Assembly (NCBI GenBank): GCA_041299705.1
Contig: JBGLNM010000001.1
Coordinates: 3,814 to 67,813 of the forward strand
Source of the DNA: Desulfobacterales bacterium
Lineage (GTDB): Bacteria; Desulfobacterota; Desulfobacteria; Desulfobacterales; JBGLNM01
Length of the DNA stretch: 64,000 nt
Reading direction: 5' to 3'
Both the position numbers and the translations under genes were made by a program. The notes under the pieces were generated by a model that was not told the origin of the DNA, made no database searches, and was given only the letters and a program-made list of their open reading frames with translations. The stretch's first letter is position 1; the number at the start of each line of letters is the position of its first letter. Of the stretch, positions 1 to 64,000 are shown one piece after another.

Positions 1-231
1 TTCGGGTACCGCCAGATCGGGATCCGCTCCTTCCTGCACAACGACGTCTTCACGGTCAACGGCACCATCCGGGAGGGCGGAACGGAGTACCTGGTGCGCC
101 GCGACGGGCTGGCCGGGGTCGACGTGGTCAACCGCGACCCGGACAACCGCATCCGCTTCAAGGACATGGTCCAGCGCATCGGCCGCGCCCTGGGAACCGG
201 GGGCCGGCCCGTGGTCGATGTCCAGCCGTAA
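1..231 (+). CDS. 3' end of a gene running off the window start (76 codons). Family uncertain, possibly a YdbH/AsmA-like partner of the next gene.
   Basis: Frame 1 is open from nt 1 to TAA at 229-231 with ordinary residue composition (FGYRQIGIRSFLHNDVFTVNG...). The family guess rests only on the ydbH-ynbE-ydbL arrangement known in E. coli. Confidence 0.35.
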   Translation, partial: FGYRQIGIRSFLHNDVFTVNGTIREGGTEYLVRRDGLAGVDVVNRDPDNRIRFKDMVQRIGRALGTGGRPVVDVQP

Positions 232-256
232 ACGCGAATTTTGAAAGGAGGCTTCG

Positions 257-805
257 ATGAAACGCGTGCTCCGGTCCCGGCGTCTGTGGGCGATCCTGCT
301 GGTGCTGTGCCTTGCCGCCTGCGTGACGATCAACATCTACTTCCCCGCGGAAAAGGTCGAGTCCGTCGCCACGGAGATCGTCAACGACATCCGGGGATCG
401 CGGCCCGCCGAAAAGCCCCCGGGGGGCGGGGCGCCCCAGGGCTCGATTTTCGATGTCGGGCGGCTGCCGGCCCTCTCCTCCGTGGCCTGGGCCCAGGAAG
501 CGGTCGACGTGTCCAACCCGGCGATCCGCGCCCTGAAAAGCCAGATGAAGCAGCGTTACGAACTGCTCAAGCCCTTTTATTCCAACGGCAGCCTCGTGGA
601 AAAAGACGACGGGTATGTCGCCGAGGGCAACGCCGACCCGCTTGCCCTGAAGGAGCGCCGGACCCTCAAGGGGCTGATCGAGGCCGAAAACAGGGATCGC
701 TCCCAGCTTTACCGCGAGGTGGCCGCGGCCCTGGCCATCGATCCCGGCCAGACCGGCCGGGTCGGGGAGATCTTCGCCGCCGAGTGGAAAAAGTCGCTTC
801 CCTGA
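257..805 (+). CDS. ydbL: YdbL-family (DUF1318) periplasmic lipoprotein
   Basis: ATG at 257. Lipobox-like signal (LLVLCLAAC). The C-terminal LIEAENRDRSQLYREVAAAL...FAAEWKK fits my memory of the DUF1318 signature. Confidence 0.7.
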   Translation: MKRVLRSRRLWAILLVLCLAACVTINIYFPAEKVESVATEIVNDIRGSRPAEKPPGGGAPQGSIFDVGRLPALSSVAWAQEAVDVSNPAIRALKSQMKQRYELLKPFYSNGSLVEKDDGYVAEGNADPLALKERRTLKGLIEAENRDRSQLYREVAAALAIDPGQTGRVGEIFAAEWKKSLP

Positions 806-947
806 GCCGGGGTTCAGGGCAGTTAGTCCTCCCTGGTGGGGGAAAACACCTCCACCAGCACCGAGTCCTCCAGCGCCGTCACCGCGTGGGGCCTGTCGCC
901 GGGAATGCACCGGCAGTCAAAAGCCCCCCAAATCACCGAAGCCCGCT

Positions 948-2992
948 TCACCGGGTGCCGGTCGCGGGGGTGCCGCCTTCCGGGCGCGCGTCTCCCGCCG
1001 CCGGCGAGCGGCGCGACAGGCGCAGGCTGTTGCCGATCACGGTCAGGCTGCTCAGGAGCATGGCGCAGACGGCCACCAGAGGGGTGAGCAGGCCGCTCAT
1101 GGCGATGGGGATGCTGAGCGCGTTGTAGACGAAGGCGCACCCCAGGTTCTGGCGGATGTTGCGGTTGACGCGCTCGGCCAGGTCGAGGAATTCGGGGACC
1201 TGGCCCGGGTCCGCGCGCATGAGGGTGATGTCGGCGGTCTCCCGCGGACCGCGCCAGGGCCGGTGCGTCGTTGACGCCGTCTCCCACCATGGCCACGCGC
1301 GAGCCCCCTGCCTGCCAGTCGGCGACGAAAGCCGCCTTTTCGGCGGGGAGCAGGCCGCCGCGGGCGGCGTCGACGGCGAGGCGCGAGCCGAGGGCGCGGG
1401 TCACCCCCTCCCCGTCGCCGGAGACCAGCGCGAGGCGGTAGCCGCGGGCCGCCAACGCTCAGGTAGACCTGGGAGGTGGTCCCGTCGCCGTCCGCCGGCG
1501 CCTCTCCCCAGGCCCGGCGGTCGTCTGCGGCCAGCTCCCCGGCCACGAAGGTTTCCGCCCCGATTTTGACCCTCCGGCCCCCGTGAACGGCCGAAATCCC
1601 GTTGGCGTGCACCCGGCGGTCGCCAAGCGCCAGGGGGGCGATGCCGCGGCGCAGCGCTTCCCCGCGGATCAGGGCGGACACGGGATGATCCGCCTCCCGT
1701 TCCAGCCCGGCCGCCAGGGCGAGGGCCTGTTCCTCGGAAAGGGGGCCCCGGAGGCGGATGCGGCGCAGGTGCCAGCGCCCCTCGGTCAGCGTCCCGGTCT
1801 TGTCGAAGACGAAGGCCTGGATGTCGGCGGCCCGCTCGAAGGCCGCGAAGTCCCTCACCACCACCCCGCTTCTGGCGGCGACGGAGATGCCGGCCACCCG
1901 GGACATGGGGATGGCGATTCCCAGGGAGCACGGGCAGGCGATCACCAGGACCGTGACAGCGCGCATCAGGGCGCCCTCGAAGGGCAGGCCCCGGATCAGG
2001 CAGACGCCCCCGGTGGCCGCGGCGAGCAGGACGATGGCCGGCACGAAGCCCCTGAGAAGGCGGTCGGTGCGGCCTTCGACGGGCGTTTTGGCGCCGAGGG
2101 CGCGCTCCATGACCGCCACCATCTGCCCCAGCACGGAATCCGCCCCCACCGCCTCGGCCCTCGCCCTGACGCTGCCCGACAGAACCCGGGTGCCGCTGCG
2201 GATGCGATCGGGCGCCTGCATGGGGATCGGCACGGCCTCGCCCGTCAGGGATGACGCGTCCACGCGGCAGCGGCCGGAGAGGACGACGCCGTCGGCGGGG
2301 ACGATTTCCCCCTCCCGGACGATGAAAAGATCCCCCGCCGCCAGCTGTCCGGCCGACACGTAGCGCCCCTGCGGAAACTCCCGGGTGCAGACCCTGGCCT
2401 TGGCGGGCCGCAGGGAGAAGAAGCCGGCAAGGTCGTCGCGCACCCGGTCCCTGGCCTTTCCCTCCAGGGTCTTGCCCACCAGGACCAGGGTGATGAGCAT
2501 GGAAGCCGTGTCGAAGTAGAGATGAATGCCGCCCCGCATGAAATTGACCGTACTGTAGAGATAGGCGGCCGTGGCGCCGATGGAGATGAGGGTCTCCATT
2601 CCGGGGGCCGCCGATGCGAGGCCGGCCCATGCCTTTTTGTGGATCGCGGCGCCGCCGTAGAAGAAGACCACGCCGGCCAGGGTGAAGATCGGCCAGGAAA
2701 TTCTGCGGATCGTCTCGGCGTCGAGGCGGCTCAAGAACCCTGAATAGAGGGCGAAGGAGAGCATCATGACGTTTGCGGTCAGGACCGCGGAGACGGCCAA
2801 CCGCAGCAGCTCGCGCCTCCTGGACTTGTCGGCGGCCCCGCGGCCGGGGATCGACGCGCGGTAGCCGAGGCCTGCCAGGACGGGGACCATCCGGTCGGGA
2901 GAGGTGTGAACCGGGTCGTAGGTGCAGCGCACCCGGTCGGTGGAAAAATTGCACGCGGCCGCGACGACCCCCTCCTGCCTGAGCAGCGCCAA
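948..2992 (-). pseudogene. P1B-type heavy-metal P-type ATPase, N-terminally truncated and broken into three reading frames
   Basis: Contains CPC (VIACPCSLG), DKTGT (FDKTGTLTEG), MVGDGVNDAPALA and a terminal TM region. The frame changes near 1457 and 1245, with about 25 and about 13 expected residues missing. The HMA domain lacks its CxxC half, and the ORF abuts the hldE stop codon. Confidence 0.85.
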
Positions 2993-4438
2993 TCACCCGT
3001 TGCGGATGCTGTTGATGATGCCGGTCGAGGACATGCCGCCCGAGGCCGGGATCAGCACCACCCGCCCGCCGAACTGTTCCACCAGCCCCCGGCCCGAGAC
3101 CTCCTCGGATCGATAGTTGTCCCCCTTGGTGAGGACATCGGGGCGGATCGTGCGGATCAGGTCGTCCAGACGGTCGGAGGGGAACACCACCACGTAGTCG
3201 ACCGAGTCCAGGGCGCTGAGGACCTGGACCCGCTCCCGGGCGCGGATCACCGGGCGGCCGGGGCCCTTCAGGCGCCGGACCGACGGGTCGTCGTCGATGG
3301 CCACGATGAGGATGTCCCCGAGGGCCTTGGAGGCGGAAAAGAGCCCGATGTGGCCGGGGTGGATCAGGTCGAAGCACCCGTTGGTCATCACGATGCGCTT
3401 GCCGCCCTGGCGCAGTTCGGGGATCAGCGCCGGCAGCTCGGCGAGGTCGCGGTACTTGTCCGCCCGCGGGGGGCGGTTCGGGTCGGCGGCGGCTTTCAGT
3501 TCGGCTGCGGAGACGGTCGCCGTGCCGACCTTGCCCACAACGATGCCGGCGGCGGTGTTGGCCAGCACGGCGCTCTCGACCAGGCTCGCGCCGCTGCAGA
3601 TGCACAGCCCCAGCACGGCCAGGACCGTGTCGCCGGCCCCGGAGACGTCGTAGACCTGGCGCGCCTCGGTGCGGATGCGGTGGGGGGCGCGCCCCGGCTC
3701 GAAAAGGACCATGCCCTCCGGCCCGCACGTGACGAGCAGGTTGCCGACGCCGGAGGTTTCCAGGAGGCGGGCGCCGGCGGCGAAGAGGGAGGCATCGTCG
3801 ACGATGTCCACCCCGGCGGCCAGGGACGCCTCCTGCAGGTTGGGGGTCACCAGGCAGGCGCCGGCATAGCGGGTGAAGTCGAGGCCCTTGGGGTCGACGA
3901 TGAGGGGCTTGGCGCCCGCCCGGGCCCAGGCGATCAGGTCGGCCATCAGTTCGCGGGTGATGAGGCCCTTGCCGTAGTCGGACACCAGGACGGCGCCGAC
4001 CCCGGGGATGATCTGCCTGGCGGCCCGTCCCAGGGCCTCGCGCGTGGCGCCGGAGATCTCCTTGCGGGTTTCGCGGTCGATGCGCAGGACGTGCTGGCTC
4101 TCGGCGATGATCCGGGTCTTGCGGGTGGTGGGGCGGCCCGGCTCCCGTATGAGCCCGCGGGTGTCCACCCCCAGCTGGGCGAAGCGCTGCAGGAGCAGGC
4201 CCGCGTTGGGGCCGGTCCCGGTCACGCCGGCCACCGACACCGCGGCCCCCAGGGCGACCAGGTTGTTGACGACATTGCCGGCCCCCCCCAGGGTGAAGCT
4301 CTCGCTGCCGACGGTGACCACCTGCACCGGGGCTTCGGGGGAGATGCGGTCGACCCTGCCCCACAGGTACTCGTCGATCATCAGGTCGCCCACCACCAGG
4401 AGCCGGCAGGCCTTGAACGTGTCGATGTCGGGGATCAT
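2993..4438 (-). CDS. hldE: Bifunctional D-beta-D-heptose 7-phosphate kinase / D-beta-D-heptose 1-phosphate adenylyltransferase
   Basis: 481 aa. N-terminal ribokinase-like domain plus a C-terminal cytidylyltransferase-like domain (MTNGCFDLIHPGHI). Confidence 0.93.
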   Translation of the reverse strand: MIPDIDTFKACRLLVVGDLMIDEYLWGRVDRISPEAPVQVVTVGSESFTLGGAGNVVNNLVALGAAVSVAGVTGTGPNAGLLLQRFAQLGVDTRGLIREPGRPTTRKTRIIAESQHVLRIDRETRKEISGATREALGRAARQIIPGVGAVLVSDYGKGLITRELMADLIAWARAGAKPLIVDPKGLDFTRYAGACLVTPNLQEASLAAGVDIVDDASLFAAGARLLETSGVGNLLVTCGPEGMVLFEPGRAPHRIRTEARQVYDVSGAGDTVLAVLGLCICSGASLVESAVLANTAAGIVVGKVGTATVSAAELKAAADPNRPPRADKYRDLAELPALIPELRQGGKRIVMTNGCFDLIHPGHIGLFSASKALGDILIVAIDDDPSVRRLKGPGRPVIRARERVQVLSALDSVDYVVVFPSDRLDDLIRTIRPDVLTKGDNYRSEEVSGRGLVEQFGGRVVLIPASGGMSSTGIINSIRNG

Positions 4439-4845
4439 GACGCCAATTTTTCCCGGATCAGCTCCCGCAGGTAGGCCGGGGGCCGCACCACGCGCCCGGA
4501 CCCGCTCAGGCAGGCGTGCCGGGTGCAGCCGTTCGCCACGGCCCTGCCGTCCCCTTCGCTCGAAATCCGGTAGTCGAACTTCATGCCGGCGCGCATGGCC
4601 GGGTCCAGGGTCGTTTCGATGACCAGCAGTTCGTCGTAGCGCGCCGGCGAAAGGTATTTGCAGTGGGCCTCGGACACCGGGAGGAAGATCCCCCGGGCCT
4701 CGATCTCCCTGTAGGCCAGGCCGAGGTCGCGGAACATCTCCGTCCGGCCGATCTCGAACCAGCGCAGGTAGTTGGCGTAGTAAGCGACGCCCATGTTGTC
4801 CGTGTCCCCGTAGATGACGCGGTAGGTGGTGCGGTGGGGGTTCAT
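4435..4845 (-). CDS. YbgC/4HBT-family acyl-CoA thioesterase (hotdog fold)
   Basis: 136 aa. YGDTDNMGVAYYANYLRWFE motif. ATGA overlap with the hldE start. Confidence 0.85.
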   Translation of the reverse strand: MNPHRTTYRVIYGDTDNMGVAYYANYLRWFEIGRTEMFRDLGLAYREIEARGIFLPVSEAHCKYLSPARYDELLVIETTLDPAMRAGMKFDYRISSEGDGRAVANGCTRHACLSGSGRVVRPPAYLRELIREKLAS

Positions 4846-4865
4846 TCCAGATGCTCCGATGCCGA

Positions 4866-4888
4866 CCCCGATTTCGATTTCGATTTGG
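4866..4888. repeat. Short period-6 tract (CGATTT)n
   Basis: ccccgatttcgatttcgatttgg, in the intergenic gap between the thrH stop and the thioesterase start. Confidence 0.6.
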
Positions 4889-4934
4889 AAGCGTTCATCC
4901 GCCTCCGCATCCCCCGACGGGCCCGGGAGTCAGC

Positions 4935-5546
4935 CTATGCCTGAGCCCCCAGTTCCCTCTCCACGATTTCCCTCAGCTCGTCGTAGGTGACGGCCACGGG
5001 CAGCCCAGGGTATTCCGCGACGATGTTGGGCGGCGGGCGGAAAAGGACCCCGCTGTCGGCCTCCTGGAGCATGGCGATGTCGTTGTAGGAGTCGCCCACG
5101 GCGACGACCCGGTAGTAGAGGCTTTTGAGGGCCACCACGGCCATGCGCTTGCCGCTGTTCTGGCGCATGCGGTAGCCGCTCACGGCGCCGTCCGGGGCCA
5201 CGGTGAGCTCGTTGCAGAAGAGGGTCGGCCAGCCGAGCTTTTTCATCAGCGGGCCGGCGAACTGGACGAAGGTGTCGGAAAGGATGATGACCTGGGTCCG
5301 CTCCCGCATCCAGTCGATGAACTCCCGGGCCCCCTCCAGGGGATCCATGCGGGCGATGACGTCGGTGATGTCCCTGAGCTTCAACCCGTGTTTCTCCAGA
5401 ATCGACAGGCGCCGGCGCATCAGCACATCGTAGTCGGAGATGTCCCGGGTGGTCAGCCTGAGTTCGGCGATGCCGGTGCGCTCCGCCACGTTGATCCAGA
5501 TTTCCGGTACGAACACGCCTTCCAGGTCGAAACAAATGACGTGCAT
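4935..5546 (-). CDS. thrH: ThrH-type phosphoserine phosphatase / homoserine phosphotransferase (HAD family)
   Basis: 203 aa starting [20 protein letters not shown] motifs present. Sits next to hom, as for ThrH in Pseudomonas (from memory). Confidence 0.75.
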
Positions 5547-5667
5547 GCTGCTCCTTTCGTGCAGGAGTGACTATGGTGAGCTAAAGTGACTAAAATGCCT
5601 AAAGTTGCGGTGTCGCTTCGCTCCGTCTGGATGTGATCGTCCGCTCACTTTTGGGCACGCATTAACC

Positions 5668-6984
5668 TCAGTCGCTGCCGTTCTCGTCTTCGATGCGGAT
5701 CAGCATCGGTTTTTCGGTGACCACGTTGAGCTGCAGCATTTCGGCCATGGCCTCCCGGACCTTGGCCTCCGACGTCTGGTGGGTGAGCATGATCAGCGGC
5801 ACCGAGCCCTCGGACTTGCGCCCCTTCTGGTGAACCGATTTGAGGCTGATGCCGTAATTGCCCAGGATGCCGGAGATCTTGGAGAGCACGCCGGGGCGGT
5901 CCAGGGCGGAAAAGCGGAAATAGTAGTGGCTGTGGATCTTCTCCATGGGCAGGACCGGCAGCCTGCGGATGCGGTCCGGCTGGTAGGAGAGCAGGGGCAC
6001 CCGGCCCGGGGAGCCGCACATCAGGTTGCGGGCGATGTCCACCAGGTCGGCGATGACGGCGCTGGCGGTGGGCATCCGGCCGGCCCCGCGGCCGCAGAGC
6101 AGGATGTCGTCCACGGCGTCGCCGTTGATGGCCAGGGCATTCAGGGGGCCGTTGACGCTCGACAGGATGTTGTCCATGGGGATCATGGTGGGGTGGACCC
6201 GCGCTTCCACCGCATCCCCGTCGTCCTTGCTGATGGCCAGGAGCTTGATCCGGTAGCCGAACTGGGCCGCGGCCTCGATGTCCAGGGGCGTGACCCTGGA
6301 AATGCCCTCGATGTAGATGTCCTCGAAATCGATCTCCATGCCGTAGGCCAGGGCGCAGAGGATGGCGAGCTTGTGGGCCGTGTCGTACCCCTCCACGTCC
6401 AGGGTCGGGTCGGCCTCCGCGAACCCGCTGGCCTGGGCCTGGGACAGGGCCTGTTCGAAGGGGATGCGCTCGTCGCTGATCTTGGAAAGGATGTAATTGC
6501 AGGTCCCGTTGAGGATGCCGGTCACGGACCGGATGCGGTTGCCCACCAGGGCCTCGCGCAGGGTCTTGATCACCGGCATGCAGCCGCCCACGCTGGCTTC
6601 GAAGGCCAGGTCGACGCCCTTGTCGCGCTCCGCGCCGTAGATGCGGTTGCCTTGGTGCGCCAGCAGGGCGTTGTTGGCGGTGACGACCTGCTTGCCGTTG
6701 TCGATGGCTCGAAGGATGAGCTCCCGGGCGATGCCCTCGCCGCCGATCATTTCCACGACGATGTCGATGCCGGGGTCGTCGACCACCCGGCGGGCGTCGC
6801 TGGTGAAGACCCCGTCCTCGAAAACGATGCCGCGGTCCGTGGCGGTGTCGATGTCGGCGACCGCCCTCAGGCGCAGCGAGGCCCCCAGCCGGGATTGGAT
6901 GATGTCAGCGCTCTCGATGAGCATCCTGGCGACCCCGGTCCCCACCGTGCCGCAGCCGAGCAAACCGACGTTGATCTCTCGCAT
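5668..6984 (-). CDS. hom: Homoserine dehydrogenase
   Basis: 438 aa. N-terminal GLLGCGTVGTGV NAD(P) fold, catalytic domain and a C-terminal ACT domain. Confidence 0.95.
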   Translation of the reverse strand: MREINVGLLGCGTVGTGVARMLIESADIIQSRLGASLRLRAVADIDTATDRGIVFEDGVFTSDARRVVDDPGIDIVVEMIGGEGIARELILRAIDNGKQVVTANNALLAHQGNRIYGAERDKGVDLAFEASVGGCMPVIKTLREALVGNRIRSVTGILNGTCNYILSKISDERIPFEQALSQAQASGFAEADPTLDVEGYDTAHKLAILCALAYGMEIDFEDIYIEGISRVTPLDIEAAAQFGYRIKLLAISKDDGDAVEARVHPTMIPMDNILSSVNGPLNALAINGDAVDDILLCGRGAGRMPTASAVIADLVDIARNLMCGSPGRVPLLSYQPDRIRRLPVLPMEKIHSHYYFRFSALDRPGVLSKISGILGNYGISLKSVHQKGRKSEGSVPLIMLTHQTSEAKVREAMAEMLQLNVVTEKPMLIRIEDENGSD

Positions 6985-6985
6985 G

Positions 6986-7002
6986 GTGTGCTCTTCCGAT
7001 CT
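6986..7002 (+). other. Illumina TruSeq adapter remnant (GTGTGCTCTTCCGATCT)
   Basis: Exact 17-nt match to the 3' end of the read-2 adapter. It lies 1 nt from the hom start codon and 4 nt from the cbbQ-like stop codon. Confidence 0.9.
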
Positions 7003-7006
7003 CCCA

Positions 7007-7852
7007 TCAGAAAATCCCGGCCACGATTTCGGCGATGGCCGTCTGCATCTCCGCGTCGTCGGACATGGCCCGGATCACCGCCACATCGCAGGCCACCGCC
7101 GGCTTGACGCCGCTTTCCATCAGTTTGGCGGCATAGACCAGCAGCCGGGTGCTGATGCCCTCTTCCAGCCCGTGCTGGCGGAGGTTGCGGACCATCTCCC
7201 CCAGGCGCACCAGGCGTTCGGCCAGTGATGGGTCCACCCCGCTTTCCCTGACGATGATCGCCAGCTCCTTTTCGGCCGACGGATAGGTGAAATCCAGGGC
7301 CACGAAACGCTGGCGCGTCGAGTGCTTGAGGTCTTTCATGACGCTCTGATAGCCGGGGTTGTAGGAGATCACGAGGTGGAAATCCGGGTGACACTCCAGC
7401 AGAAGGCCGCGTTTCTCCTGGGGCAGGATGCGGCGGTCGTCGGTCAGCGGGTGTATCACCACGGTGGTGTCCTTGCGCGCTTCCACGACCTCGTCCAGGT
7501 AACAGATGGCCCCGTGTCTGACCGCCAGGCTCAGGGGGCCGTCCTGCCAGACTGTTTCGTCCCCCTTGAGGAGGTAGCGGCCCACGAGGTCGGAGGCCGT
7601 CAGGTCCTCGTGGCAGGCGATGGTCACCAGCGGCCGGCCGATCCGCCAGGCCATGTGCTCCAGGAAACGCGTCTTCCCGCAGCCGGTGGGCCCCTTGAGC
7701 ATCACGGGCAGCTTCAGGCGGTAGGCGAACTCGAACACCTCGATCTCTTCGCCGGTGGGCAGGTAGTGGGGTTCGGCGGCGATGCGGTAATTTTCGATGG
7801 CCACGCCGTTGGGCGCTTTGAGGCCGTCGGGCCCGTCTCCAGGGTGGTGCAT
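7007..7852 (-). CDS. CbbQ/NirQ/NorQ-family AAA+ (MoxR-like) ATPase
   Basis: 281 aa. Walker A GPTGCGKT, Walker B ICYLDEV, and a CbbQ-type C-terminal region. Confidence 0.88.
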
Positions 7853-7954
7853 GTGCGGCTCCTTGCAATGGTTGCGCTCATCCCGAACAGCCCGCGGGCC
7901 GGAAAGCGGTCTGCCGGCCCGCGGGTGTGCGCCGGGTGAACCCGGAGGATTTCC

Positions 7955-8995: not shown

Positions 8996-9080
8996 CTGAT
9001 GTCTCCTTTGGTTGGGCATGCCCTGCCGGGCACGCCGATGGACGTGAACACCCCTGTTCGGGCGGGAACCCTTGGGGGCC

Positions 9081-9671: not shown

Positions 9672-9673
9672 CT

Positions 9674-10189: not shown

Positions 10190-10193
10190 CGGG

Positions 10194-11288: not shown

Positions 11289-11299
11289 GAGGCAGGGAT

Positions 11300-53402: not shown

Positions 53403-53408
53403 GACCCG

Positions 53409-53606: not shown

Positions 53607-53608
53607 CC

Positions 53609-54316: not shown

Positions 54317-54359
54317 TGCCGACCGGCGCCGGCACGCGGCCGAACGGGCGGGGAGGGTC

Positions 54360-55727: not shown

Positions 55728-55737
55728 CGATAACCCG

Positions 55738-56631
55738 ATGCGTGACACTCGGTTTAAACATATGAAAAGGCGGCTTGCCCCGGCCCAGTTCGGATTCTCG
55801 CTGATTGAGGCACTTGGGGAGCCTTGGTCCCTCGCAAGGGCCGAGAAATTCATGCGCGAAGCAATTGTTTCGCGCTGCGCCAATTTTTTGGCCATGTGCG
55901 ATTGCCATCTGTTCGCCACCCCCGGCAATCCTTATCGGAGGCTTCTCGACTGGGCCGGCTACTCCCGCCAGCGGCTCGCGGACGCCTTGAACCGGCAGGG
56001 TCTGGAAGCAACCCTTGTTGAATTGGCTGCCAGCGGGGTCTTCCTGGACATCGATGAATTCAAAGGCAAAAAACCCGTAATACGCAAGGGGTTACGCCTG
56101 ACGGTGGATGCCTCCGCATTCGACAGAGCCGAGGCGCCTTCGGTGACCATTCGCAGCAGCGGGTCGCGAGGCACCGGGATGGAGACCCGCATCGGCATCC
56201 AGGGCCTCAGGCATCTGGCGACTTGCATTCCGCCCATGCTCAGCTACCTGGAAGCCGACCACCTTCCGGTCGTCCTCTACTATCCCATGCCCTCCGTCGC
56301 GGGCATCGTACACCTGATCATTTATTCACTGGGCGGGAGGCCGCCTGCCGCCTGGTTTACGCAGTTGGAAGCCGCGGGTTGGTGGCGCAACGGGCTCGGG
56401 GTGAAGCTCGCGGCGATTCTGTTTTTTGCCAGGCTGCAGGGGGTTCACCTCCCGGCCCCGCGATTTGCGGACATTCACCGCCCGCTTGTCATGGTCGCCT
56501 GGTTGAAGCAGAATTGCCCCGAAGGCGCCGTGGTCTCGACGTTTACCGGATCTGCGATGCATCTGGCTCAGGCCGCTGAATCGGCACATATCCTTCTGCC
56601 TCCGCTGACTTTCATCGTGGGCGGGGAGCCG
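55738..56631 (+). pseudogene. Second F390-synthetase-like / adenylate-forming family gene, 3'-truncated
   Basis: ..IRSSGSRGTGMETRI.., ..TFIVGGEP, then loss of frame continuity. A weaker family call than for 54360-55727. Confidence 0.5.
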
Positions 56632-56633
56632 CG

Positions 56634-56834
56634 GACATCATCCGACGCTACGGCGGCCGCATGGTCAGCATCCTGACCTCATACGAGAATGTTCCGGCGG
56701 GCTACCGCAAGGTCTACATCCGCATGCATGGCGTCGAACGGTCCCGGCTGAAGAGCCTGAAGGAGGAACTCACCCGGACCGCCACCCTGTTGTACCTGGT
56801 CGACCACCGCGAAAACCGGCGGGAGATCTTCTGA
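56634..56834 (+). pseudogene. 3' fragment of an ACT-domain-type (CBS/ACT, AcuB-like?) protein gene
   Basis: ..DIIRRYGGRMVSILTSYENVPAGYRKVYIRMHGVERSRLKSLKEELTRTATLLYLVDHRENRREIF, stop at 56832-56834. It is in a different frame from the preceding gene. Confidence 0.45.
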
Positions 56835-57000
56835 AACCGCAGGGCTGCGGCCTGGCGGCGGCTTGCAGGCGAGAGGCTCTTTACACGCTGTAAAAGATTC
56901 CGACAGAAGCGATCTGCGGAGGCCTCCCGGCGGAGCCGCGAGGACCCGGCAATCGGTGTGATCTCAATGCATTGAACTCCGGCCGGGCCTCCTCAACCGC

Positions 57001-57016
57001 TGGCATATCTGTTGCT
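57001..57016 (+). promoter_or_regulatory. Sigma54-type -24/-12 promoter upstream of the usp gene
   Basis: TGGCAT-atctg-TTGCT matches TGGCAC-N5-TTGCW at 10 of 11 defined positions, 90 nt upstream of the ATG at 57106. Confidence 0.55.
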
Positions 57017-57105
57017 GTGGGATAACCTCAGCCCGCCTTTCACCCAGCAGCAGCCGGGAGGACGGCCGGGATTCCGCCTGGGCCTTAAGCAGAAAGGAGA
57101 CGACC

Positions 57106-57561
57106 ATGCATGACTTCAAGAAAATCCTCTTTCCGTTGGACCTGTCGGAGTCGTCGGCGAAGATCGCGCCCTTCGTGAAGAGCCTGGCCAGCCGCTACGA
57201 CGCGCGGGTTCACCTGCTCTTCGTCGCCCGGGTGTTCGATTATTTCACCAGCATGTACGTGCCCCATCCCTCGGTCAGCCAGTTCGAAAAGGAGGTGATC
57301 GAGGGCGCGGAGAAACGCCTGTATGAGTTCGCCGACGAGAACTTCGCCGCCGCTGCGGGCACCAAGACCCAGGTCGTGGCCGGAGATCCTTCCGAGGAGA
57401 TCCTCGGTTACATCGCCGCCCACGGGATCGATCTCGTGGTCATGGGGACCCACGGCCGCAAGGGCCTCGACAAGGTCATCTTCGGGTCGGTCGCCGAGCG
57501 CGTGGTCAAGTCCTCGCCCGTTCCGGTGATGGTGGTGAATCCGTTCAAAGCAGCGGACTAA
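57106..57561 (+). CDS. Universal stress protein (UspA family)
   Basis: 151 aa. KKILFPLDLSE.., ..DLVVMGTHGRKGL..GSVAERV signature. Confidence 0.9.
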   Translation: MHDFKKILFPLDLSESSAKIAPFVKSLASRYDARVHLLFVARVFDYFTSMYVPHPSVSQFEKEVIEGAEKRLYEFADENFAAAAGTKTQVVAGDPSEEILGYIAAHGIDLVVMGTHGRKGLDKVIFGSVAERVVKSSPVPVMVVNPFKAAD

Positions 57562-57610
57562 GGCTGCCGTGCGATGGAGGGTGGAGGGAGAGATGCGGTG
57601 TTCCTACAGA

Positions 57611-57768
57611 GGGTTCGGGGTTCAGGAAAAAACCAGCACTGGGCGCCTGATTACCAAAGAGCAAATCCATCCGAGCCGGAGGAAGCAGAAGGTTAATGCG
57701 CCTGTTCTTGCAGGTCTTCTGAACCCTGAAACCCGAACCCCGAACCCTGATCTCTGAACCCCGGAACC
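57611..57768. repeat. Inverted GGGTTCR heptamer arms enclosing ~95 nt
   Basis: The left arm GGGTTCGGGGTTCAGG (57611-57626) is complementary to ..CGAACCCCGAACCCTG.. in the right arm (57719-57768). At least 13 bp are perfect. Confidence 0.7.
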
Positions 57769-57820
57769 ATTTCAGGCGCTGCCAGCCGGCATGTTCGCCA
57801 AGCCGAGGAGGCGGTGAGCG

Positions 57821-58243
57821 ATGACTATCAAAGGGCTGATTCTGGTGGTCGACGACGATCCGGACATTGTGGCGACGTCGCGGATCATCTTGGAAAGCCA
57901 CGGGTATGAGGTGCAGACGGCTTCCAGCGGCAGGGAGGCCATGGATCTGCTTGCGCGCTGCAAGCCGGACCTCATGCTGCTGGACGTGATGATGGCATCC
58001 GACACCGAGGGATTCGACCTGGCTTTCAAGTTAAAGGAAGACCCGGAATTCAAGGACCTTCCCATCATCATGCTGACGGCCTTCCTCGAAAAGGTGCGCA
58101 CCGAGGGGCCCGGCCCATTCGAATTCATCCTGGGCGAGCAATGGCCGGTGGAATGGCTGTTCGAAAAGCCGCTGGATACGAAAAAACTGCTGGCCAAGAT
58201 CGAGGCGATTTTCAAGGCCAGAAAAATCGTGCCCGGCGGCTGA
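57821..58243 (+). CDS. Stand-alone response regulator receiver protein
   Basis: 140 aa. LVVDDDPDIV..LLDVMM..PIIMLTA receiver motifs. No output domain. Confidence 0.88.
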   Translation: MTIKGLILVVDDDPDIVATSRIILESHGYEVQTASSGREAMDLLARCKPDLMLLDVMMASDTEGFDLAFKLKEDPEFKDLPIIMLTAFLEKVRTEGPGPFEFILGEQWPVEWLFEKPLDTKKLLAKIEAIFKARKIVPGG

Positions 58244-58310
58244 GCGCCGCCGGGGGCGATTCTGAGCGGATGGTCACCCCAACCGACTCCACGCAGAAGG
58301 AGGGCCGGTG

Positions 58311-60176
58311 ATGGATGCGGTGGCGCATGACGCGGACCTCGGCGCCGACTGGGAGGAGATCTTCAGGCTCTCCTGGTGGCCGGTCCGCATCCGCTGGGGG
58401 GCGGCATTCGGCCTGCTGGCCGCCGTCGCCGCGGCGCGGGCCGCCGGGGTCGTCCTGGCGGTTGGGGGGTTTGTTCTGGCCGCCCTCATCCTTCTCACCG
58501 GCAACATCCTGATCTACCGGCGCCTCTCACGGCCGGCAGGCATGCAGTCCCGCTCCGACCGCAAACGCCAGCGCCTGGTGACCTGGCAGGCGGCCATCGA
58601 CGGCGCCGCCCTCTGGGTCGTCACCTATTTCAGCGGCGGCGCGACCAGCCCGCTGGCGCTCGGCTTTCTGCTGCCGATCTTCTTCGTCGCAATGCTGCTG
58701 CCCGCGCGGGCGGCCTTCGCGTTTTGCGCCGCCGTCCTGGCCGCCCTGTCTTTCATGGCGCTGGGCGAGTTCTCCGGCTGGCTGCCGCATCAGTCCGTTT
58801 CCTTCCATGGCGCCGACCTCGTTCCGCCCCTGCACCCGCTGCAGGCGCTGGGGTCCCTCGGGACGCTCGGCGCCGTGGCGCTGCTGAGCGTGCTCCTCGC
58901 CGGGTGCGCCCTCGGCGGCCTGCGGCGGCAGGTCCAGGACCAGGAACACCTCCGGCAGTCGGAGGAGGTCTTCACCCGGCGGCTGCAGGGGGCCTTCTCC
59001 ATCCTCGATACCATCGGGTCGGTGCGCGACCTGAACCGGCTGCTGGAGACGGCGGTCTCGGAGGTCGCGCTGGTGATGCAGGTGAAGGGCGTCTCGGTCA
59101 AGCTGCTCAGCGACGACGGCAAGTTCCTGCGGTATGCGGCCGCCTTCGGGCTGCCGGAGCGCATGCTCCAGGAAAAGGTCGTGGAGGTCGAGCGCAGCCC
59201 GCTCAACCGGCGCGTCATCCAGGGCGAGCCCTTCGTCACCGGCCAGGTCACCGCCACCGAGATGTTCCAGTTCGGCGAGACGCTCTCGGAGGCGCACTTC
59301 AGGTCGGTGCTCTTCGTCCCCCTGACCCTGGAGGGACGCGTGATCGGCATCCTGGGGGCCTATTGCGAGAAAGCGGACCGCTTCGCCGCGGAGGAGGTCA
59401 GCTTCTTCCGCCTGGCCGCGCGCCTGGTGGCCGTGGCCGTGGAGAACGCCCGGGCCTATGAGGCCGTTACCTCCATGAGCCATGAGCGCACCTGGTTCAT
59501 GATGAAGGTCGCCCACAACCTGCGGGCGCCGCTGGCGGGCATGCTGAGCATCCTCGAGGTCGTGCGCGACGGCTACCTCGGACCGCTCAACGACCGCCAG
59601 GGCGAGTACCTGCGGCGGCTCGACCGCCGGGCGCGCACGATGCTGGCGCTGATCAACGAGCTGATGACGCTTTCCCGCAACCGCCAGCGCCGCGACGCCG
59701 ATTCCGGGGTCACCGAGCTGGAGGCATTGGCGCGCCGCGTGCGGCGGACGTTCCAGGACAAGGCCGCCGAAAAGCGCATCGGCTTCCAGGTGAGCCTGCC
59801 GGAGGAGCTTCCGGACGTCCGCGGACGGCTGGAGACCGTGGAACAGATGGTCGAGAACCTGGTGTCCAACGCCATCAAGTATACGCCCGCCGAGGGGTCG
59901 GTGGAAGTCCGCTTCAGCCGGGCCAACGGAACCGTCCGCATCGAGGTGAGCGACACCGGCATCGGCATCCCCGCGGCGGACCGCGCCAAGCTCTTCACCG
60001 AATTTTTCCGGGCCGAGAACGCCAAGGCCATCGAGGATGTCGGCACGGGTCTCGGCCTCGCCATCGTGAAGGAAATCGCCGATCAGCTCGGCGGCCGTAT
60101 CTTCGTGGAAAGCGAAGAAGGTGCCGGCACGATCTTCGTGGTGCACCTGCCGATTGCAGCGGCGGCGACAGCGTAA
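58311..60176 (+). CDS. Membrane sensor histidine kinase (TM, GAF, HisKA, HATPase_c)
   Basis: Several N-terminal TM helices. GAF-like region. H-box VAHNLRAPLAG. DTGIGIP and GTGLGLAIVK motifs. ATG at 58311 (GTG at 58308 is also possible). Confidence 0.88.
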   Translation: MDAVAHDADLGADWEEIFRLSWWPVRIRWGAAFGLLAAVAAARAAGVVLAVGGFVLAALILLTGNILIYRRLSRPAGMQSRSDRKRQRLVTWQAAIDGAALWVVTYFSGGATSPLALGFLLPIFFVAMLLPARAAFAFCAAVLAALSFMALGEFSGWLPHQSVSFHGADLVPPLHPLQALGSLGTLGAVALLSVLLAGCALGGLRRQVQDQEHLRQSEEVFTRRLQGAFSILDTIGSVRDLNRLLETAVSEVALVMQVKGVSVKLLSDDGKFLRYAAAFGLPERMLQEKVVEVERSPLNRRVIQGEPFVTGQVTATEMFQFGETLSEAHFRSVLFVPLTLEGRVIGILGAYCEKADRFAAEEVSFFRLAARLVAVAVENARAYEAVTSMSHERTWFMMKVAHNLRAPLAGMLSILEVVRDGYLGPLNDRQGEYLRRLDRRARTMLALINELMTLSRNRQRRDADSGVTELEALARRVRRTFQDKAAEKRIGFQVSLPEELPDVRGRLETVEQMVENLVSNAIKYTPAEGSVEVRFSRANGTVRIEVSDTGIGIPAADRAKLFTEFFRAENAKAIEDVGTGLGLAIVKEIADQLGGRIFVESEEGAGTIFVVHLPIAAAATA

Positions 60177-60188
60177 GGAGACGACATC

Positions 60189-60674
60189 ATGACCGAGACC
60201 GGGACCCCCGCGGATGCAACCGCGGATCTCACGCAACTGGAACCCATCCTGAACGAATACCGGGGGCAGAAAGGCGCCTTGATCCCGGCGCTGCAAAAGG
60301 CCCAGAAACTCTACGGCTACCTCCCGCCGGAGGTGCTGCGGCGGCTCAGTGCGGGTTTGCGCGTGCCCCTGAGCAGGATTTACGGCGTAGCGACCTTCTA
60401 TTCCCAGTTTTACCTGAGCCGCCGCGGGCGCCACATCGTCCGCCAGTGCGACGGCACGGCCTGCCATGTGCGCGGGGCGGGGAAAATCGTCGAGCGCATG
60501 GAACAGGACCTCGGCGTCGCGGCCGGCGGGACCACGCCCGACTACCGCGTCACCTGCGAGGTGGTCTACTGCCTGGGGTCCTGCGGCCTGGCGCCGGTAG
60601 CCGTGGTGGACGAGCAGACCATCGGCAAGCTGGCGCCGGAGAAGATGTCCGCCATTCTCAGGGGGTTGGAATAA
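60189..60674 (+). CDS. NuoE/HydC-type thioredoxin-like [2Fe-2S] subunit
   Basis: 161 aa. ALIPALQKAQ..VATFYSQF..CDGTACHVRG..CLGSCGLAP signature. Confidence 0.88.
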   Translation: MTETGTPADATADLTQLEPILNEYRGQKGALIPALQKAQKLYGYLPPEVLRRLSAGLRVPLSRIYGVATFYSQFYLSRRGRHIVRQCDGTACHVRGAGKIVERMEQDLGVAAGGTTPDYRVTCEVVYCLGSCGLAPVAVVDEQTIGKLAPEKMSAILRGLE

Positions 60675-60682
60675 GCAATGAA

Positions 60683-60795
60683 GGGTTCGGGGTTCAAGAT
60701 TCAGGTTACAGGGTTCGGGGTTCAGGGTTCAGGGAGACCGAAACGCCGTCGATTAAACCTGTTTTTTTCCTGAACCCTGAACCCTGAACCCTGAA
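60683..60795. repeat. GGGTTCA heptamer hairpin between the nuoE-like and nuoF-like genes
   Basis: The left arm ..GGGTTCGGGGTTCAGGGTTCAGGG (to 60734), a 34-nt loop, and the right arm CCTGAACCCTGAACCCTGAACCCTGAA (60769-60795). At least 15 bp are complementary. Confidence 0.8.
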
Positions 60796-60812
60796 ATGAG
60801 AGGAGCGAACCA

Positions 60813-60920
60813 ATGTCCAAGCTCATGAGCATCGACGATTTCAGGAAGCTGCAGGAGGATTCCCGGCGCAGCATCCGCATGCGCACCAAGACCGGCACGC
60901 GGATCATCGTCGGCATGGGG
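60813..60920 (+). pseudogene. 5' fragment (36 codons) of a NuoF/HydB-type subunit gene
   Basis: MSKLMSIDDFRKLQEDSRRSIRMRTKTGTRIIVGMG is the usual start of the 2Fe-2S N-domain. The expected ..TCGIAAGA.. does not follow. Confidence 0.6.
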
Positions 60921-60921
60921 C

Positions 60922-61047
60922 GAGACCATCGTGGGTGTCGCAGGCCCGGCGGCCGCCCGTCAGCGTTGCGGCGTGATCGTGGCGGATACCCACGCCAAGG
61001 TACTGGAGATCCTGGCTGCCAACGGCTTCGATCCCTCCGGCGCCTGA
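60922..61047 (+). pseudogene. 3' fragment (~41 codons) of an unidentified gene
   Basis: ..GETIVGVAGPAAARQRCGVIVADTHAKVLEILAANGFDPSGA, stop at 61045-61047. It is in a different frame from the nuoF-like start. Confidence 0.4.
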
Positions 61048-61061
61048 TCGGACACGAGACC

Positions 61062-62441
61062 ATGGAACCCGATACCACCGAAAGCCTCTGCCCGGTTTGT
61101 CTGAACCGCATCGGTGCGGAACGGGTCGCCTGCGGCGAACAGGTGCAACTGGTCAAAACCTGCCCCGAGCACGGGGAATTCAGGACGGTCATCTGGAACG
61201 GCCGCCCGAGCCTGGGGGAATGGCAGCGCCCCAAAACACCGGTGCTTCTTCGCCCCTTCCTCCAGGAGACGCTGCGGGGCTGTCCCTTTGACTGCGGGCT
61301 CTGCCGTGAGCACCGGCAGCGCTCCTGCACCGTGCTGCTGGAGGTGACCCGCCGCTGTAACCTGCACTGCGCCGTGTGCTTTGCCGGGTCTCATCCGGGG
61401 GACGCGGTCGATCCCAGCCTGGCGGAAATCCGCGGCTGGTACCAAAGGGCACTGAGCATGGCCTCCGGCAGCAACATTCAGCTCTCCGGCGGTGAACCCA
61501 CCGTGCGGGATGACTTGCCTGAGATCGTTGCCGCCGGCCGCAAGATCGGCTTCGGCTTCATTCAACTGAACACCAACGGCATTCGGCTGGCAACCGACAC
61601 CGGATACATGAAGGCCCTCAAGGACGCCGGCCTTGCCAGCGTCTTCCTGCAGTTCGACGGCATTGACGACGCGGTGCACCTGAAACTGCGTGGACGGGGA
61701 TTGGCGGACGTGAAACGCCGCGCGATCGATGCCTGCGCCGGCCACGGCGTCGGGGTCGTGCTGGTGCCCACGTTGGTCCCCGGAGTGAATACCCACCAGA
61801 TCGGGAGCCTGCTGCAGTCGGCCATCGGCCTCTCCCCGGCCGTGCGGGGTGTGCACTTCCAGCCCGTCAGCTATTTCGGCCGCTACCCGCAGCCGATAAA
61901 CGGCGCCTCCCGGATCACGCTGCCGGAACTGATGGCCGCAATCGAACACCAGTCCGCCGGGATGTTCAAGGCGGCGGACTTCCGGCCGCCCGGCTGCGAA
62001 AACGCCTGGTGCTCGTTTCACGCCGATTATATCATCCTGCCGGGCGGCACGGCCCGGCGGTTGCAGGCGTCGAGCCCTTTGTCGGGATGCTGCACGCCGA
62101 TTCCGGCCGAGGAAGGCGCGCTGCGCACCATGGCGCACGTTTCCCGGCAGTGGGCGGGGCCGAACAGCGGAACAGCAGCCCCTGGCCCGCCCACGGCCGG
62201 CGACCCCGGTTGCGTTTCGGATTCACCCAGCGGCGGGCCGATGCGGCTGGACGATTTCCTCGACCGGGCGCGTTCCCACACGTTCACGGTCTCTGCCATG
62301 GCCTTCCAGGACGCCTGGACCATTGACCTGGAGCGGCTGCGCGACTGCTGCATCCATGTGCTGGATCCGCGCCGCGGCCTGGTTCCGTTTTGCGCCTACA
62401 ACGTCACCGCCGTCGATGGGAGGGCCTTGTACCGGCAATGA
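61062..62441 (+). CDS. Radical SAM protein with an N-terminal zinc-ribbon-like CxxC...CPEHG region
   Basis: ATG at 61062. CPVCLNRI..CPEHGEF. CxxxCxxC (RRCNLHCAVCF). QLSGGEPT. 459 aa. Confidence 0.8.
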   Translation: MEPDTTESLCPVCLNRIGAERVACGEQVQLVKTCPEHGEFRTVIWNGRPSLGEWQRPKTPVLLRPFLQETLRGCPFDCGLCREHRQRSCTVLLEVTRRCNLHCAVCFAGSHPGDAVDPSLAEIRGWYQRALSMASGSNIQLSGGEPTVRDDLPEIVAAGRKIGFGFIQLNTNGIRLATDTGYMKALKDAGLASVFLQFDGIDDAVHLKLRGRGLADVKRRAIDACAGHGVGVVLVPTLVPGVNTHQIGSLLQSAIGLSPAVRGVHFQPVSYFGRYPQPINGASRITLPELMAAIEHQSAGMFKAADFRPPGCENAWCSFHADYIILPGGTARRLQASSPLSGCCTPIPAEEGALRTMAHVSRQWAGPNSGTAAPGPPTAGDPGCVSDSPSGGPMRLDDFLDRARSHTFTVSAMAFQDAWTIDLERLRDCCIHVLDPRRGLVPFCAYNVTAVDGRALYRQ

Positions 62442-63626
62442 ATGCACTGCGCATCACCCCCCTGGATCGCTGGATCAGAAGCCGAATCGGCCTCGATCCG
62501 GGAGACTGCTTCACGCGCGAGGACGTGAGGCGCCATCAGCTGGGAAAACTTCGGGAAAGCCTATCGTATGCATCCCGGCACAGTCCGTTCTATCGCCGAC
62601 AGTTTTCCGGGTGCGCCGGTTTTGCCATGGCGGATTTTCAGGGGTTTGCGTCTCTGCCCTTTACAACGGCGGAAGATATCGTACGCGACCCGCTCGAATT
62701 CCTCTGCGTCTCCCAGTCGGACGTGGCGCGGGTGGTTACGATCCGGTCGTCAGGCACCACCGGATTACCGAAGCGGTTTTTTTTCAACGAGGCGGACCTG
62801 GAACTGACCGTCGATTTTTTCCAGCACGGCATGTCCACCCTCGTGCAGGCCGGGCAGCGGGTGCTCATCCTGATGCCCGGCGGGTTGCCGGGCAGCGTGG
62901 GGGATTTGCTCGTCGAGGGACTCGCTCGCATGGGAGCGATAGGCATCGTTCACGGGCCGGTCCAAGACTCCGAGGATGCCATCGATGAGATCCTTGCCCA
63001 TCGGGTCGAATGCTTGGTAGGAATTCCCGTGCAGGTCCTCGCCCTGGTCAGGCACCCCAAAAGCGCCCGCATCCCGCGGGGTTTCATCCGCAGCGTGCTG
63101 CTGAGCACCGATTACGTACCCGCATCCATCGTCGCCGATATTGAACAGACGTGGGGTTGCAGGGTCTATCAGCATTACGGTATGACAGAGATGGGATACG
63201 GCGGCGGGGTCGAGTGCGACGCCCATGACGGCTACCATCTCCGCGAGGCCGACCTGTTCGTGGAGATCGTCGACCCGGCGACCGGCAGGACGCTGCCGGA
63301 CGGCGTTTCCGGCGAGGTGGTCGTCACCACGTTAACCCGCCGCGCCATGCCCCTGATCCGCTACCGCACCGGCGACATGGCCCGGTTTCTGCCCGAGTAT
63401 TGCCCCTGCGGCAGCACCCTGCGCCGCTTGAGCAAGGTGCAGGGCCGGTTGGCGAACGGGGCAACGCTGGGGCCGTTGACCCGGCTTCACATGGCGGCTC
63501 TCGACGAGGCGATTTTCGCCATCCCGGAAATCCTCAATTTCCAGGCGGTGCTGATCCCTGTGAACGGCTTCAGCCGGCTGAGCCTAACGGTCCACTGCGA
63601 CCCCTGCCGGTTTCCGGACACCTTGG
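62438..63626 (+). pseudogene. PaaK-family AMP-dependent ligase, 3' end cut by an adapter remnant
   Basis: ATGA overlap with the radical SAM stop codon. ..IRSSGTTGLPKRFFF.., ..YRTGDMARF.. motifs. Similarity is lost at ~63626. Confidence 0.75.
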
Positions 63627-63644
63627 CGTGTGCTCTTCCGATCT
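63627..63644 (+). other. Illumina TruSeq adapter remnant (CGTGTGCTCTTCCGATCT)
   Basis: Exact 18-nt match to the read-2 adapter 3' end, at the ligase/nifS-like boundary. Confidence 0.9.
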
Positions 63645-63645
63645 C

Positions 63646-64000
63646 ACCGGCGTGGCCGGCCTCTACATCCGCCGCGGCTCCCTGGTCTGGCCCCTGGTCG
63701 ACGGCGGCGTCCAGGAGCACAACAAGCGCGCCGGAACCGAAAACCTGACGGGCATCATCGGCATGGGCGTGGCCGCCGACCTGGCGCGCCGCGACCTGGA
63801 AAAGCGCCTGGGGCACCTCGAGAGGCTCAAGGCCCAGCTCCTCGCCGACCTGCCGCGCCACGTCGACGAGTACATCGTCAACACCCCGCAGGGCCCCAGC
63901 CTGCCCAACCTGGTGTCGGTCTCCATCAAGTACATCGAGGGCGAGAGCGTCATGCTGATGCTCGACGACGAGGGCATCGCCGTGGCGACCCGCTCGGCCT
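63646..64000 (+). CDS. Internal part of a NifS/IscS-type cysteine desulfurase gene (5' cut at the adapter, 3' runs off the window)
   Basis: ..GVAGLYIRRGSLVWPLVDGGVQEHNKRAGTENLTGIIGMGVAA...IEGESVMLMLDDEGIAVATRSA has class V aminotransferase / NifS motifs (RAGTEN). Confidence 0.8.

Follow-up and report, generated by a model that had tools for sequence, protein, structure and literature searches.

The 64,000-nucleotide (nt) stretch analysed here, positions 3,814 to 67,813 of contig JBGLNM010000001.1 in the Desulfobacterales assembly GCA_041299705.1 (hereafter the window), is, with high probability, a gapless end-to-end concatenation of short contigs from a fragmented metagenome-assembled genome (MAG) of an uncultured Desulfobacterales bacterium, and as such an artefact of assembly or deposition and not biology. 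Namely, a codon-usage hidden Markov model (HMM), Pfam profile coordinates and near-identical sibling contigs together place 18 hard joints in the window, which divide it into 19 blocks of 0.2-5.3 kb with a mean of ~3.4 kb, or about one junction per 3.4 kb over the 64 kb. The blocks are contigs, some of them carry adapter tails, and open reading frames (ORFs) that run across joints are found on a 2.54-Mb sequence. An earlier note on this DNA, made from the letters alone, had proposed about 16-17 blocks joined without gap markers, and had preferred concatenated or chimeric contigs to natural rearrangement. The preference is supported by contig-end matches, by siblings that continue past the joints, by adapters and by joint-spanning ORFs, and the gapless blocks are real, except that there are 19 of them.

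The sibling contigs are short contigs of three NCBI MAGs (GCA_041299755.1, GCA_041311035.1 and GCA_041311005.1) that were recovered by exact-protein look-up and compared with the window by blastn, followed by base-level inspection of their ends; they are cited below by labels such as L083, and the blocks by the numbers of the list further down. They are 99.2-100 % identical to the window blocks, and 13 block termini are sibling contig termini to the nucleotide. What is more, two sibling contig ends abut directly at four places (12134|12135, 20697|20698, 28470|28471 and 31784|31785). In particular, L089 finishes on base 12134 and L084 takes over on 12135, and, similarly, L001 ends at 28470, L092 starts at 28471 and ends at 31784, and L094 starts at 31785. 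Three whole sibling contigs are found from end to end, L090 as block 6, L092 as block 8 and L094 as block 9 (with a length difference in a tandem repeat), and two more, L085 and L095, lie whole inside blocks 14 and 16 with one terminus in common each. Sibling contigs of 4810 and 4833 nt carry the proteins of block 15 as well, in agreement with its length of 4831 nt. Followed along the window, the sibling accession numbers (278, 031, 331, 324, 523, 488, 128, 571, ...) show no sorted order, and the source differs from every sibling found in single-nucleotide polymorphisms (SNPs) and in some termini. Since many termini coincide exactly, one of them adapter-bearing, the source may well share reads or an assembly lineage with GCA_041299755.1.

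Seven joints (2990/1, 6985/6, 7002/3, 15381/2, 23447/8, 31784/5 and 60920/1) are crossed by siblings, namely L001, L083, L084, L086, L088/L089, L091, L093 and L096, whose sequence runs on there for 198-5591 nt into intact genes not present in the window. Thus, L083 extends 237 nt and 3525 nt past the two ends of block 2, the 3525 nt lying upstream of homoserine dehydrogenase; at 15381/2, L084 runs on for 1446 nt to one side and L096 for 1599 nt upstream on the other; L001 carries 574 nt more of uvrB past block 7; and L086 extends 1972 nt past 60920. At 31784/5 the siblings run on for 3741 nt and 5591 nt on the two sides, with L091 covering the 3741 nt beyond block 8 and passing through complete binding-protein and permease genes.

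Three joints also carry synthetic sequence. An exact-match scan detected TruSeq tails of 17, 18 and ~9 nt at three block starts, GTGTGCTCTTCCGATCT at 6986-7002, CGTGTGCTCTTCCGATCT at 63627-63644 and CTTCCGATCT at 31784-31793, which bears out the earlier report of adapter sequence at three joints. The 3' end of the adapter abuts the right-hand block at all three sites, always in read-start orientation, and the expected chance count of a 17-nt exact match in 64 kb is ~7e-6. Native sequence restarts at 7003 after joint 6985/6 and at 63645 after joint 63626/7; at the third site the 9243-nt sibling L093, which has native sequence leftwards from 31790, proves no more than ~5 nt to be foreign, and L094 opens with the same 9-nt TTCCGATCT tail as block 9. 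In adapter-contaminated contig ends, the target of the NCBI adaptor/vector screen, the TruSeq 3' end (...GTGTGCTCTTCCGATCT) likewise stands directly before genomic sequence, and such ends are expected where untrimmed adapter read-through reads form dead-end tips. Unlike in the usual case, the remnants here are internal owing to the concatenation and short (9-18 nt), and their shortness may have let them escape screening.

According to an exact look-up in a collection of 15 billion proteins, the intact window proteins occur on sibling contigs of 2-8 kb and on one NCBI-derived sequence of 2,536,680 bp, and four joint-spanning ORFs occur on that single sequence only: P0046, a 1281-aa RpoB with a foreign tail; P0172, a 570-aa glycosyltransferase whose ORF (35309-37021) reads across joint 35467/8; P0173, a 959-aa PAS-RpoC fusion; and P0176, a 534-aa acyl-CoA synthetase. 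The gapless concatenation is therefore present in that indexed record. A literature search on the accession numbers and the Sequence Read Archive run gave no matches, and scans of metagenome contigs contributed nothing useful.

The codon model behind the joint map was self-trained on 14 long ORFs and applied as a seven-state Viterbi segmentation of the window, whose G+C content is ~66 % and whose third-position GC bias is very strong; ~65 coding segments were scanned against Pfam. The coding frame or strand switches without a stop or start codon at essentially all positions listed earlier. These switches, together with cut Pfam domains and sibling alignments, confirm the abrupt mid-domain breakpoints, and 15 of the 17 positions originally proposed are right within 12 nt. 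The other two are displaced: the true joint for ~42700 is 42572/42573, 127 nt away, and that for ~12094, which had been given as a possibility, is 12134/12135, 40 nt away. Two kinds of feature were missing from the list, namely joint 15381/15382, revealed by the sibling contig comparison, and two small in-order deletions in the Cu-ATPase gene (~1242 and ~1450). Since joint 15381/2 had been missed, blocks had seemed to reach ~9 kb; the lower end of the proposed range, 0.2 kb, holds, and the longest block is 5.3 kb. The exact joints from the sibling alignments are 2990/1, 6985/6, 12134/5, 15381/2, 20697/8, 23447/8, 28470/1, 31784/5, 35467/8, 38764/5, 42572/3, ~45212, 45420-45423, 48773/4, 53604/5, 56631/2, 60920/1 and 63626/7. 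They delimit the following blocks.

Block 1, 1-2990 (cut by the window start): DUF1318 gene (+) and Cu-type P-type ATPase (-), by Pfam, translation and alignment to 3RFU.
Block 2, 2991-6985: hldE, thioesterase, HAD hydrolase and homoserine dehydrogenase (all -); equals L083 (JBFYVB010000278.1) 7520-3526 of 7757, 99.9 %.
Adapter tail, 6986-7002 (+): 17-nt TruSeq GTGTGCTCTTCCGATCT at the start of block 3; L088/L089 have native sequence there.
Block 3, 7003-12134: CbbQ/NorQ, URO-D and CobW-like genes and a gene of unknown family (all -); equals L089 5132-1 (99.98 %) and L088 5156-25 (100 %).
Block 4, 12135-15381: ResB without its start, CcsA, multihaem cytochrome c and codons 1-10 of a Tat-signal protein; equals L084 (JBFYVB010000331.1) 1-3247 of 4693, 100 %.
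Block 5, 15382-20697: Hdr/Flp-like cluster including an HdrA homologue with an in-frame TGA at 18618, then a C-terminal alpha/beta hydrolase fragment; equals L096 (JBFYVB010000324.1) 1600-6915 of 6915, 99.96 %.
Block 6, 20698-23447: ferredoxin, FprA, rubredoxin and NqrA residues 1-185; equals the whole of L090 (JBFYVB010000523.1, 2750 nt), 99.96 %.
Block 7, 23448-28470: N-terminal 417 aa of UvrB, CysS, IspF and a 3'-truncated ADP-forming acyl-CoA synthetase; 23461-28470 equals L001 5010-1 of 5584, 99.5 %; L002, 99.9 %.
Block 8, 28471-31784: gene of unknown family, PpiC-type isomerase, NAD kinase and a periplasmic binding protein up to residue 100; equals the whole of L092 (3314 nt), 99.9 %.
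Block 9, 31785-35467: starts with the adapter-like TTCCGATCT; response-regulator fragment, HisD and class-V aminotransferase; equals the whole of L094 (3629 nt), 99.2-99.7 %.
Block 10, 35468-38764: 3'-truncated GT2-GT4 glycosyltransferase, 23S-rRNA-IVP protein and GT2 glycosyltransferase, by Pfam.
Block 11, 38765-42572 (-): 25 nt of upstream sequence and rpoB codons 1-1263.
Block 12, 42573-45212 (-): rpoC fragment without its first ~405 aa and last ~101 aa.
Block 13, 45213-45422 (-): 210 nt encoding residues 1-69 of a PAS-type sensor, start codon included, in frame with the rpoC fragment by translation.
Block 14, 45423-48773: alpha/beta hydrolase without a start codon, tRNA-Val, ScpB, ScpA and TrpS; 46135-48773 equals the whole of L085 (2639 nt), 99.8 %.
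Block 15, 48774-53604 (4831 nt): N-terminal DHH fragment, second Hdr-like cluster and C-terminal TPR fragment, by Pfam.
Block 16, 53605-56631: three genes of unknown family; 53605-56278 equals the whole of L095 (2674 nt), 100 %.
Block 17, 56632-60920: Usp, response regulator, GAF histidine kinase, NuoE-like protein and codons 1-36 of the gene that follows; equals L086 (JBFYWQ010000024.1) 1-4289 of 6261, 100 %; 56862-57867 is 100 % identical to a 1,006-bp contig of run SRR28346254.
Block 18, 60921-63626: radical-SAM protein and a 3'-truncated AMP-binding ligase, by Pfam and HMM.
Adapter tail, 63627-63644 (+): 18-nt TruSeq CGTGTGCTCTTCCGATCT at the start of block 19.
Block 19, 63645-64000 (+; cut by the window end): part of the interior of a class-V aminotransferase (profile 247-336 of 371), by Pfam.

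Some further candidates did not survive. The HMM had put extra breakpoints at ~11425 and ~12124; the switch at ~11425 was rejected as a joint, L088 and L089 being contiguous over 7003-12134, and the segment 11426-12124 is merely a minus-strand gene. Frameshifts or further joints inside 48774-53604 were likewise rejected, as tblastn against the first HdrA copy showed separate genes with overlapping paralogous matches.

Judged by Pfam coordinates, and by comparison with relatives for RpoB, RpoC and UvrB, genes including essential ones are cut at the joints without start or stop codon in all four geometries, among them the convergent double 3' and divergent double 5' truncations that had been described from the letters. 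At ~23447, NqrA (NQRA_2nd profile 3-58 of 145, + strand) runs head-on into UvrB, of which residues 1-417 are left and the helicase-C, UvrB and UVR domains are missing. The ADP-forming acyl-CoA synthetase breaks off at ~28470 at position 126 of 138 of the Succ_CoA_lig profile; at 31784 a periplasmic binding protein (Peripla_BP_6 profile 1-77 of 343) adjoins a response-regulator receiver domain; and at ~35467 the GT2-GT4 glycosyltransferase lacks its Glycos_transf_1 domain. At ~45422 the beginning of the PAS-type sensor and an alpha/beta hydrolase lie back to back, the latter lacking a start codon and matching its profile only from position 25, and at ~53604 a TPR fragment lies back to back with a gene of unknown family. 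The DHH domain at ~48774 covers profile 3-96 of 125, and at 63626 the AMP-binding ligase passes through adapter into the middle of a class-V aminotransferase (Aminotran_5 profile 247-336). Finally, at 15381/2 a Tat signal peptide (MKIDRRSFLS) is in frame with the interior of an 801-aa protein. According to the codon HMM, codon bias stays normal on both sides up to each joint, with no erosion.

The two large RNA polymerase genes are cut as well. The rpoB ORF (38702-42547, -) lacks the Pfam domain Rpb2_7, and its homology ends at residue 1261-1263, or ~92 % of full length, in at least 80 relatives. Residues 1-1251 of P0048, a full-length RpoB of 1367 aa that is 77.6 % identical, align to window positions 42547-38765, and its remaining 116 residues are found nowhere in the 64-kb window; the other 119 RpoB homologues listed are 1361-1401 aa long and all have PF04560. 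The rpoC fragment, in turn, begins at profile position 90 of Rpb1_2, without Rpb1_1 and half of Rpb1_2, and the first 70 codons of its ORF (45213-45422) are the N-terminus of a PAS-type sensor instead. Two JGI proteins that are 99 % identical, P0174 and P0175, follow the fragment in frame to '...FKHPVTS' at 42573 and then continue for 101 aa, which is why the joint is placed at 42572/42573, only 25 nt upstream of the rpoB ATG; the HMM estimate of ~42700 for the end of rpoC was rejected on the same grounds. In the 64-kb window there is no second copy of rpoB or rpoC. The native order in relatives is rpoB and then rpoC, ~1.6 kb apart; read along the + strand, the window has the block of rpoB first and that of rpoC second, both reverse-complemented. 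As a side observation, RpoC of this lineage has a C-terminal extension of ~140 aa past the conserved motif, which is AT-richer, contains a CxxC motif and was scored as non-coding by the codon HMM (42573-42800, -, and proteins P0174/P0175).

A different kind of damage is seen in the Cu-type P-type ATPase gene (951-2992, -), which is 5'-truncated within its HMA domain at joint 2990/1 and is read in three frames. Alignment to the CopA structure 3RFU puts its pieces in order, with ~25 residues lacking at ~1450 and ~13 at ~1242, and single-base frameshifts at these two sites were therefore rejected. The middle piece, 1243-1449, is 207 nt long and thus similar in size to the 210-nt PAS block. These breaks have the look of small gaps, in scaffold or in coverage, from which the spacers have been removed.

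How could such a sequence have come about? Who made the concatenation, and why the contigs ended where they did, we infer as follows. In the 2,536,680-bp sequence, short contigs of a low-coverage MAG would follow one another directly, without N spacers and with their order and orientation arbitrary, such that each breakpoint would be the end of one contig and the start of the next, and nothing biological would occur at the joints. The contigs themselves may have ended where coverage failed, where strains vary, where intergenic short tandem repeats occur and where reads with adapter tails formed dead-end tips. Some contig ends do lie beside gene starts, where siblings show intergenic heptamer or hexamer tandem repeats, and such repeats probably contribute to the breaks there. 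The window resembles concatenated draft pseudomolecules in its contig-sized blocks in arbitrary order and orientation, in genes cut at both kinds of end, in joints that have no biological signature and in block ends that are real contig ends of siblings. That said, the usual pseudomolecule has runs of N or a six-frame stop linker between its contigs; here there are none, so that gene callers read across and produce fused ORFs.

Several points weigh against this account. Both flanks of 15381/2 lie in the interior of longer sibling contigs, and at 2990/1, 6985/6, 7002/3, 23447/8 and 60920/1 the single sibling-covered flank is internal to a sibling contig; unless some joints are chimeras made within the assembly, contigs must have been shorter there in the source assembly. 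Blocks of 207 and 210 nt are smaller than binners normally keep. The 2,536,680-bp record is known here only through its indexed proteins. Also, the blocks of rpoB and rpoC, which are true neighbours, adjoin with their order kept along the + strand, and the ATPase pieces are in order as well, so that the order of blocks seems not to be fully random; scaffolding information from which the Ns were stripped out may lie behind this partial retention. One could go further and read part of the window as real, with a small minority of joints being strain-specific recombination or in-vivo fusions, the candidates being the joints with continuous reading frames at which no flank matches a sibling contig end, 15381/2 (Tat) and ~45212 (PAS to RpoC residue ~405), or, separately, with the adjacency of rpoB and rpoC and the order of the ATPase preserving true long-range order, but we give very little credence to this.

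Could the joints be chimeras within real contigs, created by amplification of the MDA (multiple displacement amplification) type, by ligation during amplification or library preparation, or by the assembler? In single-cell and low-input assemblies, MDA chimeras join unrelated or nearby loci in either orientation and without repeats. Indeed, blocks lie in both orientations here, adapter sequence stands between blocks, the out-of-order joining of two nearby loci (rpoB and rpoC) is of a kind known from MDA, and the flanks at 15381/2 (both), 2990/1 and ~45212 (those that can be checked) are not sibling contig ends, with two of these three joints in frame. However, 13 termini match the ends of separately deposited sibling contigs to the base and several blocks are whole contigs, the adapter remnants of 9-18 nt are not the full adapter that a ligation chimera would be expected to leave, one junction per ~3.4 kb far exceeds chimera rates in consensus assemblies, and comparison of the ±80-nt flanks revealed neither an excess of inverted matches nor an inverted-duplication signature. 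There is also no microhomology at 15381/2. Chimeras made within the assembly or by MDA are possible for the few joints that lack sibling-end flanks, but they cannot explain the whole pattern, and as a general account we regard them as improbable. Accordingly, of the two examples offered in the earlier note, concatenation after assembly is much the better fit, since the junctions of MDA-type chimeras would not coincide with contig ends. A somewhat better, if still unlikely, possibility is that contigs were concatenated downstream, at indexing (for instance by merging a multi-FASTA file into one sequence), and not in the submitter's record: the 2,536,680-bp 'contig' has neither an accession nor source-given protein names in the collection, and sibling assemblies of the same accession series are ordinary multi-contig whole-genome shotgun records. 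On the other hand, the same collection indexes the siblings contig by contig, which speaks against general merging, and the SNPs and termini that set the source apart show that it is not a merged sibling.

The reading that departs furthest from concatenation would take the window as contiguous DNA of an extremely rearranged, decayed genome, for example that of a pseudogene-rich symbiont. There are, after all, many truncated genes, and a protein of Olavius algarvensis Delta 1, a gutless-worm symbiont from a lineage in which genome flux would be plausible, belongs to one of the protein clusters. Yet at these positions the genes of siblings that are 99.2-100 % identical are intact and run on, rpoB and rpoC are cut although they are essential and have no other copy in the window, codon bias is normal up to each joint with no sign of decay, and the adapter at the joints is synthetic. 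Scrambling mediated by insertion sequence (IS) elements or recombination in host-associated bacteria likewise brings loss of synteny and truncated genes, but none of its marks is present: the joints are free of IS elements, integrases, target-site duplications and shared repeats, and near-identical genomes are unscrambled. In particular, Pfam finds no transposase, integrase or recombinase family in the coding segments, and apart from the adapter the flanks of all joints share no sequence beyond chance (16 flank pairs share at least 11 nt, against a control mean of 10.6 and a maximum of 21 in 200 random position sets); the absence of IS elements, integrases and att-like repeats noted earlier is thereby confirmed. 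The sole RNA gene, tRNA-Val at 46152-46226, lies away from any joint. Because the siblings are near-identical and intact and the adapter is synthetic, we treat natural rearrangement as excluded on these sequence comparisons, its probability being negligible.

The value of this result is that of a data-quality warning only. The caution already voiced against operon or 'system' inference across the joints is justified, the joints being artefacts: inference of operons, 'systems' or synteny is invalid across the 18 joints and probably elsewhere in the 2.54-Mb source too, which at the density of the window should hold roughly 700 of them. Moreover, joint-spanning singleton proteins in the collection can pass for novel domain architectures or fusions, and the adapter tails are now internal to the record. 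Scans for oddities should therefore mask the source or split it at the joints.

As to the organism, the closest RpoB relatives, at 76-78 % identity among the matches listed, are MAGs of uncultured Desulfobacterales and Desulfobacteraceae; in a scan of genome contigs for RpoB the best match among those listed reached 76 %, and the source and siblings were not among them. The cluster with the Olavius algarvensis Delta 1 endosymbiont protein was formed at an identity of at least 90 %. The gene content includes Hdr/Flp-type clusters, multihaem cytochromes, NqrA and FprA.

Some minor observations concern individual blocks. Intergenic short tandem repeats recur in many unrelated blocks, as hexamers (ACGACA, ACGATT, ATCGAA) at 11213-11286, 33822-33885, 34096-34200, 37038-37315 and 37814-37847, and as heptamers (GGTTCAA, GAACCCT) at 37220-37252, 57721-57768 and 60682-60795. 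At 37046-37315 the repeats make up a 111-nt composite unit; a tandem repeat also occurs in L083 upstream of homoserine dehydrogenase, and array length varies between sibling MAGs (a difference of ~54 nt near 34144). At the uvrB end of block 7 (23448-23500) the last ~50 nt are strongly divergent from L001, the remainder being 99.5 % identical, which looks like strain heterogeneity at a contig tip. The 23S-rRNA-IVP gene (PF05635, 37350-37781, -) lies in a stretch of low GC (~55 %), and its exact protein is found only on the 2,536,680-bp sequence and not in the sibling MAGs.

Finally, three in-frame or intervening TGA codons deserve mention. The CobW-like GTPase gene (9081-9674, -) has an in-frame TGA at 9480-9482 (...YLRGG-TGA-VGCSLATS...), where siblings call ORFs of 63 aa and 101 aa, and another TGA, at 52884-52886 (+), lies between an HdrC-like Fe-S ORF and a CCG-domain ORF. 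Either could be a selenocysteine codon; no significant hairpin was found downstream of them. The third, at 18618-18620 in the HdrA-like gene (17982-20432, +), falls at a conserved Cys/Sec site (FPTMDCSI-U-ILGPKM) and is followed by a stable predicted hairpin with a GGUC apical loop (z = -2.3), and, from these sequence features, it is very likely a selenocysteine codon. The gene callers of the sibling MAGs split this gene into ORFs of 207 aa and 598 aa.

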